A stretch of 40,940 bases of DNA from a virus. Both the position numbers and the translations under genes were made by a program. The notes below the pieces were generated by a model that was not told where the DNA came from, searched no databases, and was given only the letters and a program-made list of their open reading frames with translations. Positions 23,179 through 35,468 of this stretch are shown here, piece by piece. Each line of letters begins with the position of its first letter. Within the stretch, counting starts at the first letter, position 1. The stretch lies in IMG/VR virus record IMGVR_UViG_3300021254_000005; one strand, written 5' to 3'.

Positions 23179-23460
23179 TTATTCCTCCTCCATATTTATA
23201 CATCTATTTTCAAATTTCTTATAAGCATCTAAATATAGCTCTTTTTTGTCTCCATTATATGTACATTCATAATACATTCCATTAAATAATGTTGTACTTA
23301 ATAATGCCTTGTTATTTTGTAATGTTTTACATTGCCAAACAACAAAAACATCAAACTCTGGAACATTATCACTTTTATCCAAATGATCCATTTCATATTT
23401 TCTAACTATTTCTTTACACTTATTTATAAATTTTTCATCTCCCATTTTAAATACCTCCAT
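23179..23460 (-). CDS. hypothetical protein
   Basis: 93-aa ORF in the early operon, translationally coupled. Confidence 0.55.
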   Translation of the reverse strand: MEVFKMGDEKFINKCKEIVRKYEMDHLDKSDNVPEFDVFVVWQCKTLQNNKALLSTTLFNGMYYECTYNGDKKELYLDAYKKFENRCINMEEE

Positions 23461-23990
23461 TAAAATAATAAATTTCCATTTTCATCTGTCATACTGCCAG
23501 TTATGTTTTTAGTTTCTTCTGGCTTTTCTCTTGTAATTCCTTTTATTGCCCAAAATTGAGCCTCTTCTATTTTTGTAATTGCTAATGATGTCTCTCTGCT
23601 TGGTTTGCAGTTTGTTTCTATAAAATCGTACACATCAGAAAACATATTTCTAACATCATCAATTCTATTTTGCTGTTCTTCGGTTGTGTTTGTGTATTTT
23701 GCTCTATCATTCATTACTTCTTTCCCTCCTTTCTCCTTTGATTTTTTTGAAATTGCTCCCAAATTTTGTCGAATTTCACTTTTGCATGTGCTTTTTTGTG
23801 TTCTTTCATCAATTGTTGTCTTTGAATTTTCCTTGCTAAACTTCCCATAATCATCTTCCTTTCTATTTTCAATTTTTGATATTGTCCTATGTGCTTTAAC
23901 AAATTTTTCACAATAGGTTAAATGCTCACTTGCTAAATTGCAATTGAGAAAATATCCACAATCTAAACATACATTTCTAGCCATCTGCAT
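23460..23990 (-). CDS. hypothetical protein, N-terminal Cys cluster
   Basis: 176-aa ORF with CLDCGYFLNCN...YCEKF and a C-terminal SLAITKIEEAQFWAIKGI helix. Confidence 0.55.
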   Translation of the reverse strand: MQMARNVCLDCGYFLNCNLASEHLTYCEKFVKAHRTISKIENRKEDDYGKFSKENSKTTIDERTQKSTCKSEIRQNLGAISKKSKEKGGKEVMNDRAKYTNTTEEQQNRIDDVRNMFSDVYDFIETNCKPSRETSLAITKIEEAQFWAIKGITREKPEETKNITGSMTDENGNLLF

Positions 23991-27360: not shown

Positions 27361-28166
27361 TCTTTTTCTCCAGTTCATTTCTAAAACATACAATAAAGTA
27401 ATTCATAAAATCTTCTAATTTATCTTCATCATCAATTGTAACAGGACAATACTTTTTTGCTGCTAGAAATATTCTTGTAAATAATTTCTCTTTTAAATTT
27501 AATAAATATATCTTATATGGGCTTAAATATATTTGAGTTATTGCATAATATTTTAATTGTAAATCGAATTTCATTTCTTCTGGTAAATATGTATCATGTT
27601 CTCCTATGTATAATTCCAGTTGTTTTAATGTATTCTCAATTGATATTCTATCTGTTTCATTCAGCCCTTTGAATTTGTTATTCTTTTTATTTATAAATAA
27701 ATACAAAGAATTTAATTTTATTTTATTTAATTTATTATTTTTATTATCCTTATTATTATTATTATCTTTATTATATTGTTGTTGCTCGTTTGTTATTTGT
27801 TTGTTATTTGAATGTTGCTCGTTTGTTGATTTGTTTGTTATCTTTTCGCCTTTAGATTGATAAAGTCCATAGTTTTCAATGGTTATGAGAGTATATTTGT
27901 TTGTTGTTTTGATTGTTATTTCTCCGAGTTTTTTCTAGTTTATTCAGTACCGTTCTTACTTGTTGAGTTGATAAATTAGTTTCATTTGCTAAATTTCCAA
28001 TAGATGTTATTTTCTGTCCAGGAAGAATTTCTATGCCATGCCATTTTGCTTTTGTCCAGTTAGTTGTTAATAATAAATGAATAAAAACAATTTTGACATT
28101 ATTATCATCATACCATTCCCAATCGAGAATTTTTCTATGTAAATTGATAAAACCCTCTGTGTACAT
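27353..28166 (-). CDS. replisome organizer (phage replication initiator, winged-helix N-terminus). Needs a +1 shift at CGG 27924-27926
   Basis: The two track ORFs (27876-28166 and 27353-27706) join as ...VLNKLEKT | GEITIKTTNKYTLITIENYGLYQSKGEK... if C27926 is skipped. The +1 frame is open from 27934 to 27356. Confidence 0.8.
27781..27841. repeat. direct repeats inside the replisome organizer gene (candidate origin iterons)
   Basis: gttgctcgtttgttatttgtttgttat (27781-27807) and gttgctcgtttgttgatttgtttgttat (27814-27841), next to an AT-rich tta/tat tract at 27700-27780. Confidence 0.5.
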
Positions 28167-28189: not shown

Positions 28190-29050
28190 TTATTTTTGTA
28201 AAAATGGATCATCTTCATTTGTAGTTTGATTTTGTTCTTCTGTAACTGGTTGTTGTTCTGGTTGTTGTTCTTCTTCTTGAACTGATTCTGTTACTTCAAA
28301 TTCATTATCAACATATTCATAAGTTCCATCTTCTTTTATTTCTGCCATGTCGCTTTCCATAGCTTTTTGCATATCAACACTCATGATACCCCATTTAGAA
28401 ATTAATTGTCTTAACATTGTTTTATATGCCATTCCATCAAAGTCTTTTTCCCAGAATGTGTATCCTTTATGTGCTTTATAGCCCATTGAATATTTTTCAG
28501 CATGTGCTTCCATGTGTTTCTTTGTCCAATATAATGTTTTTCTGAAACCATTTAGATATTCAAACATAGCATAATAACCAATTGTTGGAGCTTTTTCTCT
28601 TTCCTCCTCATCTTCTATCAATTTAACTTCAATATCTTCATTAAGTGCATCATATTTTACTAATTCGCCCTCTTTAATTGCTAATACATTTAGTTTTTTA
28701 TAATATCCGCTTCTGATTGCTAATTGAATATAACCTTTATAACCAATTTGGAATTGAGCAACCTTACATCCTCTTTTATTATCATTAAAAGGAACCATAT
28801 AATATTGTCCTAATTGTGGACTAGGGCTCAAATTAAGAGCCTGTCCTACTAATGCAGCAGAGAGAATTGTTGAATGGTCACATTCTGCTAATTGTGGATT
28901 TGTACTAACTGCTGATATAATTGCAGTAATAAACTGTTGACCTTTTTCTCCTCCTACCATTTCATTGATTTTCTTTTTCATTGCATCTGTGCTTAAAAAT
29001 GCACTAAATGTTTGTTTCTGTGTTTTAACTAAACTATTTTTAACTTCCAT
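28190..29050 (-). CDS. recT: RecT-family single-strand annealing protein
   Basis: ...LAECDHSTILSAALVGQALNLSPSPQLGQYYMVPF...QIGYKGYIQLAIRSG... is typical of RecT. Confidence 0.85.
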   Translation of the reverse strand: MEVKNSLVKTQKQTFSAFLSTDAMKKKINEMVGGEKGQQFITAIISAVSTNPQLAECDHSTILSAALVGQALNLSPSPQLGQYYMVPFNDNKRGCKVAQFQIGYKGYIQLAIRSGYYKKLNVLAIKEGELVKYDALNEDIEVKLIEDEEEREKAPTIGYYAMFEYLNGFRKTLYWTKKHMEAHAEKYSMGYKAHKGYTFWEKDFDGMAYKTMLRQLISKWGIMSVDMQKAMESDMAEIKEDGTYEYVDNEFEVTESVQEEEQQPEQQPVTEEQNQTTNEDDPFLQK

Positions 29051-29706: not shown

Positions 29707-30537
29707 CTATTTTTCCTCCTTTCTTGGAACTGGTCCATATTTAATATTGTTTTGAATTAAAAATTCTCTAATTTTCATCTTTTGTTCTTGAGTAACCATT
29801 ACTCTAAAATCAATAACTTGTAATTTTTCTTCCACTGGTGCTTGTTCTTCTTTGGTAGGAACTTGTACTTCTTTTCTAGCTTCTTGTTGTTGTTTTAATT
29901 CTTCTAATTTCTTATTGCTCTCAATAACATTCATTCCATATTTTAAAGAGCTACTTAAACAGTCTGACTCTGCAATATGTGAAAAATAAAATGCTTGTAC
30001 TTGTTTTAAAATCACTTCATCTTTTATTTGTCCTTCTAAAACTTTCATATCATCTGATGTTTTAACTACTAAATGGTTTATTTCTTCTTCAATTTTCTTC
30101 ATTGTGTATGTTTTATTTAACCATCTAGGATTAAATATTAAGTCAAATAAAATTAAATCTTTGTAATCTCCTATGTAGATATCGAACAATGCTTTTATTT
30201 GTTCTTTTTTCTCATTTTGTTCTTTTTCTTCAAATGCTTTTACCTGTGCATCTATTGAACTTGATGCATCTGTAATTATTCCTTGAAGTTCTTTACACTT
30301 ATTTTCAAAATCTTCAAATGGTTTTAAAACCTCTTTCTTAATTCTAATTTTTTCATCGTTTATTGCTTTTGCAACCTTATTTAATGTAGCTCTATCTGAT
30401 TTTGCAGCAGTAATTGTTTCTTCTGTATATACTACTGACTTATATTCCTTTGCTTTCTCTGTTACCCATTTCTTAATATCTTCATAATTGAATTGAATAG
30501 GTGCTAATGATTTTATTTCCTCAACTTTTAATTCCAT
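29707..30537 (-). CDS. DUF1351-family phage protein
   Basis: The N-terminus ...APIQFNYEDIKKWVTEKAKEYKSVVYTEETITAAKSDRATLNK... is typical of DUF1351 proteins encoded next to RecT. Confidence 0.65.
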   Translation of the reverse strand: MELKVEEIKSLAPIQFNYEDIKKWVTEKAKEYKSVVYTEETITAAKSDRATLNKVAKAINDEKIRIKKEVLKPFEDFENKCKELQGIITDASSSIDAQVKAFEEKEQNEKKEQIKALFDIYIGDYKDLILFDLIFNPRWLNKTYTMKKIEEEINHLVVKTSDDMKVLEGQIKDEVILKQVQAFYFSHIAESDCLSSSLKYGMNVIESNKKLEELKQQQEARKEVQVPTKEEQAPVEEKLQVIDFRVMVTQEQKMKIREFLIQNNIKYGPVPRKEEK

Positions 30538-30542
30538 TATTA

Positions 30543-30824
30543 ATCCTCCTTCTTAACTACTATAAATTTCATAATATTGTCATCAATTCTATATTATCTT
30601 TCTAGCTCTGTAATAAAAGATGCCTCGCTTTCAAAGTCAATCTCAAAATAAATTCCATATTTATTCTTTTTGATTTCATAAGCTAACATTTTCTTTCCTA
30701 GACTTTTAAATTCTTCTAGCTTTCCGTTTTCCTTAATTAGATTTGAATATTTGTTTTCAATCTCCTTTTGAGTTTTTTCATCTACAGTTGGAGCAACTAT
30801 AATAATACTTTCATATTTATTCAT
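30543..30824 (-). CDS. ribosomal protein bS6 homolog, interrupted by an in-frame TAA at 30594-30596
   Basis: MNKYESIIIVAPTVDEKTQKEIENKYSNLIKENGK...GKKMLAYEIKKNKYGIYFEIDFES...ELER, then TAA, then YRIDDNIMKFIVVKKED. It aligns along the full length of bacterial S6 (KYE..P..DE...NG...GKR.LAYEI...G.Y...EFDR.L.I.D.IIRH.VVKEE). Confidence 0.75.
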
Positions 30825-30840: not shown

Positions 30841-31464
30841 CTACATATTTGGTAATACTAGCGGAGGTCTTTTATCCTCTTCAACATATTTCCAAAATTC
30901 AATTTCTTTTTCTTGTAAATAATCTATATCTTCTGCTAAATTATTTCTGTCAAACTTAAATGTTTTAGTCATCTGTAAATCATCTGAATAGGTTAGTTCT
31001 GCAAATAAGAATGCAAAAGAGAATCCAGTTACATTTAGATAATGTAATACCTGTATAAAATAATTATCCGGAACACGATCATTCCATTTTTCTTTTTGCA
31101 TACTCCTTAAAATCTCTGATGTTTTTATTTCTAGAACTCCCTTTTCTCCAGTTTCTTTATTGATTAGAATACCATCTAAACTAGCAAATAAAAATGGATA
31201 TTTAGGATGTCTAATTATTGTATTTTCTTGATGTATCACTTCAAATTCTGGATGTTTTATCGCAAAACTTTGTCTCAAATTATCTTCCATAGCAACACCA
31301 TATTTTACATAGGGCTTGTCTGAAATATCATCTTGCTCTGCTCTTTTAGTTTTGATTTCCCATAATTTAATGTTATCGCTATATGGATTTAATCCTACTA
31401 TTGCAGAGGCATCCGAGCCACCTATTCCAGTTTTCCTTTCTTCTAACCATTCTTCTCTAGTCAT
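30841..31464 (-). CDS. YqaJ-like viral recombinase exonuclease
   Basis: The motif GIGGSDASAIVGLNPY and the PD-(D/E)xK-type core (ASLDG...LEIKT) are typical of YqaJ / lambda Exo-like nucleases. Confidence 0.85.
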   Translation of the reverse strand: MTREEWLEERKTGIGGSDASAIVGLNPYSDNIKLWEIKTKRAEQDDISDKPYVKYGVAMEDNLRQSFAIKHPEFEVIHQENTIIRHPKYPFLFASLDGILINKETGEKGVLEIKTSEILRSMQKEKWNDRVPDNYFIQVLHYLNVTGFSFAFLFAELTYSDDLQMTKTFKFDRNNLAEDIDYLQEKEIEFWKYVEEDKRPPLVLPNM

Positions 31465-31466
31465 TT

Positions 31467-31640
31467 TTACCAACCTTTCATATCTGATTTTTTTTGTGGT
31501 TTTATACTCATTGAAACTTCAATTCTTTTAGGTATTACTACTTTATAATTGCAATCATCACAACATCTGCCATCATTTACTGGTCTAGCATTGTTGCCAT
31601 AACCTTTATACTTTTTTCCACAAATACTGCATGTTTCCAT
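31467..31640 (-). CDS. small zinc-ribbon protein (57 aa, not in the ORF track)
   Basis: Hand translation gives METCSICGKKYKGYGNNARPVNDGRCCDDCNYKVVIPKRIEVSMSIKPQKKSDMKGW. Confidence 0.5.
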   Translation of the reverse strand: METCSICGKKYKGYGNNARPVNDGRCCDDCNYKVVIPKRIEVSMSIKPQKKSDMKGW

Positions 31641-34318: not shown

Positions 34319-35468
34319 TTGGCAAGAAAGACTAATTTCAATGTAAATGGCTATAATTATTATAAAGTAACTAAAACTATAGGACATAAAGAAAATAGAG
34401 AACCTATTAAGAAAGTTTTTTATGGATCTAGTAAATCAGAAGCGGAACAAAAAGCAATAGATTATATCCAAAATCTAAAATTAGGATTACAATTTAATGA
34501 TTGTATAACTATTACAGATTTATTCCCTAAATGGTTATTTGAGCATAAAAAACATGAATTAAAACCATCTACATTTGAAAGTTATGAAGGCTTATACAGA
34601 AATTACATTGAGCCAGATGATATTTCAACTCAACCAATTAAAGATTTAAAATCAATAAATATTCAGAACTTTTATGATAGGTTGATGAAATTAAAATTAA
34701 AACACACAGAAAAACCAATGACTCCATATAGAGTAAAAGCTATTCATAAATTGCTGCATTTGTTTTTTGTGTATTGTGAAAAAGATGGATATACAATTAA
34801 AAATCCTTGCAATAATGTAACACTACCCAAAGATAATAAAAAGGATTTAGAAATATTAGAACGAAAAAACAAAATTGATTTTTTTACAGAAGAGGAAATA
34901 AAAATACTGATTCCAGCCTTTGATGGTAGCCATTATCAAGATATAGTTATTTTTGCACTCGCAACAGGAATGAGGCAAGGCGAAATTCTAGGATTACAAT
35001 GGTCTGATTTAGATTTTAAAAATAAACTAATTCATATTATTCATAATTTAAGTAATTCAGCAGATTATGATGAAAAGAAAAAAAGAAGTTATAGTTTGAA
35101 ATTGCAATCGCCTAAAAGTAAAAACTCTATTAGAACTATACCAATGAATGATACTGTTTATAATATGCTTATAAATAAAGAAAGAACTAATACAATGGTG
35201 TTCCCTCGGTAGAGATAACACATATATAAATAGTAAAAATTTATTGAAACAATGGCAAAGAAGATTAAAAAATGCTGGATTAAGATATAGAAAATTCCAT
35301 GATTTAAGACATACTTTTGCAACTCAATTACTAATGCATGGAACGGATTTAATTACAATTAAGAATTTACTAGGTCATTCATCTATAAAAATAACTGAAA
35401 TATATTTAGATAGTTTACCAGAAAAAAAGGCAAATTCTACAAAATTAATGGACTCTATTCTAAACTAA
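34319..35468 (+). CDS. int: tyrosine integrase. Needs a +1 shift at CGG 35207-35209
   Basis: ORF 34319-35212 carries the catalytic Arg region ([16 protein letters not shown]). ORF 35244-35468 carries HDLRHTFAT...[13 protein letters not shown]. Skipping C35207 gives ...MVFP | [20 protein letters not shown]... with no stop codon. Confidence 0.8.

Follow-up and report, generated by a model that had tools for sequence, protein, structure and literature searches.

Fourteen ribosomal proteins have been reported in viral genomes, their genes being under purifying selection; among them, bS6 is enriched in phages of animal-associated bacteria, and bS21 and bL12 are the only two for which incorporation into ribosomes was shown (Mizuno et al., 2019; Nat Commun 10:752, PMC6375957). 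The bS6 gene considered here likewise is a gene of cellular origin in a small tailed phage genome and features purifying selection in its intact relatives, but the copy under study is interrupted by a nonsense codon. Furthermore, the conserved position of bS6 in a YqaJ/DUF1351/RecT early module is an arrangement for which no description was found in the survey of Mizuno et al. (2019). A deposited protein of the same phage family, DAO42229.1 ("30S ribosomal protein S6 [Caudoviricetes sp.]", P0051 in our numbering), is 65% identical and shows the same YqaJ-S6-DUF1351-RecT arrangement, but unlike the interrupted copy it is intact at 94 aa and extremely widespread (1009 blocks of the collection). 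Compared with the bacterial chromosomal gene rpsF, which lies in the order rpsF-ssb-rpsR, fold and length are the same, whereas the context is a phage recombination module, the clade a separate one and the protein truncated.

Recoded phages use alternative codes with suppressor tRNAs, in which TAG is read as Gln or TGA as Trp. The locus resembles such stop codon recoding in that a stop stands where relatives have Gln, but it differs in concerning a single site in one clone, in the codon being TAA instead of TAG, in lacking a suppressor tRNA and in TAA being the main genuine stop.

The gene is located in the virus record IMGVR_UViG_3300021254_000005, the whole 40,940 nt of which are referred to as the window. 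Phage-encoded bS6 being already known, the window copy is a broken member of a known gene class. With a probability of roughly 85%, it represents a fresh nonsense allele, i.e., a natural knockout, by which a single rumen phage clone lost a dispensable bS6 gene, and neither programmed read-through nor recoding.

The bS6 Gene and Its Premature Stop

The gene and its surroundings comprise the following features, all on the minus strand and given in the direction of transcription:

30841..31473 (-), YqaJ-type exonuclease, the upstream neighbour (PF09588, E=1.9e-33)
30597..30824 (-), bS6 codons 1-76, i.e., β1-α1-β2-β3 and most of α2 (Pfam PF01250, TIGR00166, AF2 models)
30594..30596 (-), codon 77 with a premature TAA in place of the CAA (Gln) of all relatives compared (DNA alignments, codon tables)
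30543..30593 (-), 17 untranslated codons, YRIDDNIMKFIVVKKED, corresponding to the end of α2 and all of β4 (profile completion, identity to the C-terminus of P0122)
30545..30551 (-), AAGGAGG Shine-Dalgarno sequence of the DUF1351 gene, inside the bS6 tail codons (direct sequence reading)
30537..30542 (-), tandem TAA TAA with which the bS6 gene originally ended (direct sequence reading)
29707..30537 (-), DUF1351 protein, the downstream neighbour (PF07083, E=3.9e-39)
28190..29050 (-), RecT single-strand annealing protein (PF03837, E=8.1e-42)

The ORF at 30594..30824 (-) encodes 76 aa, MNKYES...SFITELER, and ends with the TAA at 30594-30596. Past this codon the bS6 frame stays open for the 17 codons of the tail and then reaches TAA TAA, the second of which overlaps the ATG of DUF1351 at 30537; read through codon 77, the bS6 protein would have 94 aa. 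The mutated base is position 30596 of the plus strand, which corresponds to C>T on the coding strand at nt 229 of the gene. As the DUF1351 gene, starting 56 nt downstream of the premature stop, has its own AAGGAGG inside the S6 tail, it may initiate independently, and a polar effect of the stop on this gene is unlikely.

The assignment to bS6 was supported by profiles as well as by structure. The 76-aa ORF matched the Pfam family Ribosomal_S6 (PF01250) with 66.5 bits (E=2.5e-18, profile positions 1-75 of 90) and TIGR00166 with 61.7 bits, both exceeding the curated cut-offs of 27 and 42.9 bits, respectively. For the 94-aa reconstruction, the Pfam score rose by 20 bits to 86.9 bits (E=1.1e-24) with the profile covered from 1 to 90 of 90, and the TIGR00166 score rose to 82.9 bits. 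Thus, the profile comparison of both versions that had been suggested with the initial annotation gave matches above the cut-off in each case, the longer version scoring higher, and the following statements made there are borne out: that the phage encodes a bS6 homologue, that the frame behind the stop is the bS6 C-terminus with a full length of 94 aa, and that the gene lies between YqaJ and DUF1351/RecT. An open stretch of 17 codons is in itself unremarkable at this base composition (P ~0.19). It is because of the profile completion and the identity of all 17 tail residues to the C-terminus of P0122, an intact natural protein, and not because of the length of the open frame, that the similarity behind the stop is real homology and not a coincidence of AT-rich sequence. 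Sequence matches in the PDB were exclusively bS6, with the Bacillus subtilis protein ranking top and aligning end to end. The alignment with Bacillus S6 in the initial annotation was right with respect to homology, but the residue replaced by the stop is a phage-invariant Gln and not the Leu that Bacillus suggests. Searches of PHROGs yielded no significant family for either the 76-aa or the 94-aa version, and megablast of the region against 50,697 GenBank phage records yielded no match.

The AF2 model of an intact relative, P0001 (94% identical to the window protein), had a pLDDT of 94 and superimposed on the bS6 chains of solved ribosomes with TM values of 0.91-0.96, around 0.93, and an rmsd of 0.9-1.4 Å. 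It consists of β1 (residues 2-10), α1 (16-33), β2 (34-51), β3 (54-66), α2 (68-80) and β4 (84-92). Measured against this model, the stop after residue 76 deletes residues 77-80, the last turn of α2, and the whole of β4 (84-92), so that the complete β1-α1-β2-β3-α2-β4 fold is encoded by the 94-aa reconstruction and by no single translatable ORF of the window. The truncated 76-aa protein was still modeled confidently (pLDDT 92), with AF2 giving no measure of stability; the fragment is probably destabilised or inactive, although it may retain some residual activity.

A Single Recent Change at Codon 77

A homologue search of a collection of 5.8 billion proteins returned 1,277 homologues, of which the best 120 are nearly all 93-94 aa long. 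In more than 90% of 37 aligned relatives position 77 is Gln, rarely another sense residue, and in none of them a stop. The survey of relatives for a sense codon at this position, proposed together with the initial annotation, gave a uniform picture at the DNA level: CAA was found at codon 77 in every phage locus examined by alignment, and 14 further loci, all 14 with CAA, were detected in JGI metagenomes by a pattern scan open to CAA, CAG, TAA or TAG. The TAA allele itself was not found in the scans of IMG/VR and of the JGI metagenomes.

The intact counterpart of the window gene is P0122, which consists of the window's 76 residues, a Gln and the window's 17-residue tail and belongs to the same 90%-identity cluster; contigs of several ruminant metagenomes encode it. 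Three loci (L117, L119, L121) differ from the window only at nt 229, where they have C and the window T, across the gene and 30-40 nt of each flank; L119 is moreover 99.6% identical to the window over 8.4 kb. In the neighbouring genes of the four closest loci, 88 synonymous vs. 35 non-synonymous differences were counted. Because these three loci differ at nt 229 alone and the changes in neighbouring genes are mainly synonymous, the stop goes back to one C>T transition, which is very recent and lies on a haplotype that is intact in all other respects.

Reality and Spread of the TAA Allele

The exact 76-aa protein occurs on 10 contigs, which represent at least five assemblies among the places listed. 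The listed carriers are ERZ1756110 (34x), ERZ12302814 (25x), ERZ12302822 (5.8x), Logan SRR873598 and NCBI GCA_001684375.1, each of the five matching the window with 100% identity along 3.9-20 kb. Since the same T is present in five assemblies that are identical to the window, a random consensus error is ruled out and TAA is a real allele of one clone. The NCBI assembly (AUXO01) represents the sheep-rumen metagenome published by Shi et al. (2014). Judging from the names of metagenome-assembled genomes, e.g., SRR873597_bin.111, that project is probably also the source of SRR873598 and of the ERZ1230xxxx reassemblies, and the persistence of TAA carriers may reflect one flock and not a wide spread. 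Since several libraries yielded the clone as an entire circular genome with good coverage, the loss of full-length bS6 is clearly not strongly deleterious; such a tolerated loss fits a pseudogene and equally fits a tolerated functional variant.

The Phage bS6 Clade, Its Selection and Its Origin

Among seven distinct intact phage alleles, pooled dN/dS was 0.19, and 0.20 for codons 78-92, values that refer to the intact relatives, with the window's clone itself showing no variation. The tail deleted in the window is under purifying selection in the intact phage lineages.

A scan with one genome per species identified 79 loci with the chromosomal order rpsF-ssb-rpsR in uncultured gut Clostridia, among them Clostridium sp. 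CAG:440 and 26_22; the S6 proteins of these loci are 53-64% identical to the window protein. In a neighbour-joining tree of 18 phage and 79 host copies, the two groups were split in 192 of 200 bootstraps. The phage clade is marked by fixed signature residues, mostly in α1 and α2 (K17, Q19, I22, N24, Y26, S66-F70, Q77 and D81, protein numbering); position 77 is V, I or N in the host S6 and Gln in the phage clade. Phage bS6 was captured once from a host-type rpsF and has been maintained since.

Two variants were noticed among the relatives. P0004 and P0127-P0129 are S6 proteins of 141-142 aa with an in-frame, Cys-rich N-terminal extension of 48 residues (MFCTRYKKNCDEALY...CQECVFYEDRKED), which could be a true fusion with an upstream zinc-finger-like ORF or an artefact of gene calling. 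Besides, the S6 of L105 (an ERZ773224 contig, 1.8x) ends with ...KFIVKEWRTKN vs. the usual ...KFIVV(K/R)xED, which looks like a 3' frameshift and is probably a sequencing error.

The Phage Genome and Its Cargo Slot

The window (29% G+C) carries an exact terminal direct repeat of 127 bp at 1-127 and 40814-40940. A repeat of this kind marks a circular sequence that was assembled with k=127, so that the actual genome measures about 40.8 kb and is circular or circularly permuted. Genes for a terminase, an integrase, an S24 repressor and an SH3 lysin are present, and the circular contig together with these phage genes places the S6 gene within a bona fide viral genome and not in a cellular contaminant. 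Relatives were found as prophages flanked by host genes, one of them integrated beside tuf, and as IMG/VR contigs.

Down to about 65% identity, every homologue with its context read displayed the order YqaJ - S6 - (optional small ORF) - DUF1351 - RecT. This order characterizes the window and 22 relatives, and S6-SSB-S18 the 79 host loci; the chromosomal rpsF-ssb-rpsR context is absent from the window. Neither the window nor the phage loci contained a match to SSB or S18 that would point to co-captured ssb or rpsR, and the ORFs adjoining S6, inspected in the same test for co-capture, belong to no Pfam family. Related YqaJ-DUF1351-RecT phages without S6 have either an empty slot (L128, L131) or an unrelated ORF of 109-142 aa in its place. 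Because of these S6-less relatives, bS6 is considered optional cargo: the slot between YqaJ and DUF1351 is a cargo hot-spot in which bS6 is dispensable. In L126 (3573-4001), L127 (3657-4001) and L129 (3697-4026), the slot is filled by a conserved small protein with the motif KIVGVKYED.FEKKTF.GREYSYY...VEVPTRYGKS.

Further elements of the genome were recorded. The tyrosine integrase (297 aa, 34319-35212, plus strand) matched only positions 2-79 of the 172 of the catalytic-domain profile; the integrase has 390 aa in L001, and an extra integrase fragment of 54 aa adjoins it in L116. The short match could result from lineage variation or from truncation. A protein of 176 aa encoded at 23460-23990 (-) has an Acb2/Tad1 hairpin domain (E=1.8e-13), is conserved in related phages and is a candidate anti-CBASS or anti-Thoeris nucleotide sponge. 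An RT-18 RNA (Rfam RF03021, 65.7 bits) at 40484-40565 (-) lies just upstream of two ORFs overlapping by 38 nt, the first of which (39890..40456, minus strand, 188 aa) has no Pfam match, while in the second (39400..39927, minus strand, 175 aa) the match is confined to the C-terminal part of RVT_1 (profile 125-205 of 205). Together they look like a reverse-transcriptase module in which the reverse transcriptase gene appears to be split or frameshifted.

Proposed Course of Events

The carrier is a temperate phage of AT-rich gut and rumen Clostridia that, as many related phages do, holds bS6 as accessory cargo between YqaJ and DUF1351/RecT in an early operon. By analogy with other virus-encoded ribosomal proteins, the phage bS6 presumably enters host 30S subunits or replaces the host bS6 in them. 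A single C>T change at Gln77 converted CAA to TAA, so that translation should end after residue 76, and the 76-aa product without the last turn of α2 and without β4 would most likely be a loss-of-function or destabilised protein. The 17 downstream codons have stayed undamaged simply because so little time has passed since the mutation. The early operon should still work, with DUF1351 retaining its own Shine-Dalgarno sequence.

Recoding and Alternative Explanations

Of the 45 ORFs of gene size on the gene strand, 27 end in TAA. The premature stop stands in a TAA-T context, which is also the one most often found at genuine stops (14 of 45). ARAGORN predicted no tRNA anywhere in the window, the only match of an Rfam scan of the window was the RT-18 RNA, and thus neither a suppressor tRNA nor another recoding apparatus was found. 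A tblastn comparison of the window with the ORFs of 13 related loci gave 36 HSPs containing stops, among which S6 was the sole convincing mid-gene stop in the early region; the others were antisense or spurious ORFs or differences at the C-terminal end. One of the ORFs with stops in the aligned region, encoding 96 aa downstream of RecT (27876..28166, minus strand), aligns with a 120-aa ORF in L002 and L003 even beyond the window's stop, with two stops in the tail region, probably a C-terminal length variation. The initial annotation had counted the S6 stop as a possible sixth translation-level oddity of the genome; the missing tRNAs, the ordinary TAA-T context and the lack of a second convincing mid-gene stop in the early region speak against this view.

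A genome-wide reassignment of TAA to Gln in phage or host would be in line with the stop replacing a Gln codon, as in known codes that read TAA or TAG as Gln. It conflicts with the use of TAA at the end of most genes, with the dense, compact and contiguous gene map that the standard code yields, with the absence of other mid-gene TAA codons relative to relatives in the early region and with the missing suppressor tRNA; it is effectively refuted by the gene map, and its probability is practically negligible. Functional read-through at this one site, with UAA77 being decoded by a near-cognate tRNA-Gln or a host ochre suppressor to give a small dose of full-length bS6, draws on the open tail frame, identical to that of the intact allele, and on the fact that Gln insertion would restore exactly the ancestral protein. 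When UAA is misread by near-cognate tRNAs, the residue inserted tends to be Gln, Tyr or Lys. Still, a stop at codon 77 is shared by no relative, the phage encodes no tRNA and TAA-T is its preferred termination context, while the integrity of the tail is accounted for by the recency of the mutation. Because the flanks are identical to those of the intact alleles, no context that promotes read-through has evolved around codon 77. Functional read-through is hence rated as very unlikely. Among the three options offered in the initial annotation, the fresh nonsense pseudogene is the one favored here, whereas the read-through substrate is not supported, given the unchanged context and the missing tRNA. 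A leaky UAA in the natural host, at which near-cognate tRNA-Gln would provide a little wild-type bS6 next to an excess of a 76-residue fragment competing for bS18 or rRNA, is a highly unlikely variant. If it were true, one step would have shifted the gene from a "ribosome supplement" to a "ribosome modulator," and the two alleles would form a natural isogenic pair for testing phage bS6.

It is likewise conceivable that the truncation was selected, the 76-aa protein serving as a decoy for bS18 or 16S rRNA or acting as a dominant-negative that alters the assembly of host ribosomes. The recovery of the clone as a complete circular genome in several libraries and the preservation of the remaining fold by AF2 agree with this, but only one clone without diversification since the mutation is involved, purifying selection acts on the deleted segment in every other lineage, and the loss of a β-strand and part of a helix from a single-domain fold of 94 residues is expected to be destabilising. 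Selection for the short protein is judged very unlikely. An artefact of sequencing or assembly, the true base being C and the gene intact, might be suspected for a single-base difference in an AT-rich region, but different pipelines gave the same T in the five separate assemblies (NODE contigs of SPAdes style with 25x and 34x, Logan, NCBI AUXO01), which makes such an error extremely improbable.

Significance

That an accessory gene acquires a nonsense allele belongs to ordinary mutational turnover and matters little in itself. The CAA- and TAA-bearing natural phages, near-isogenic with 99.6% identity over 8.4 kb, are a ready pair of wild type and knockout. Moreover, the large, monophyletic and selectively maintained clade of phage bS6 offers concrete material on what a phage gains from bS6.
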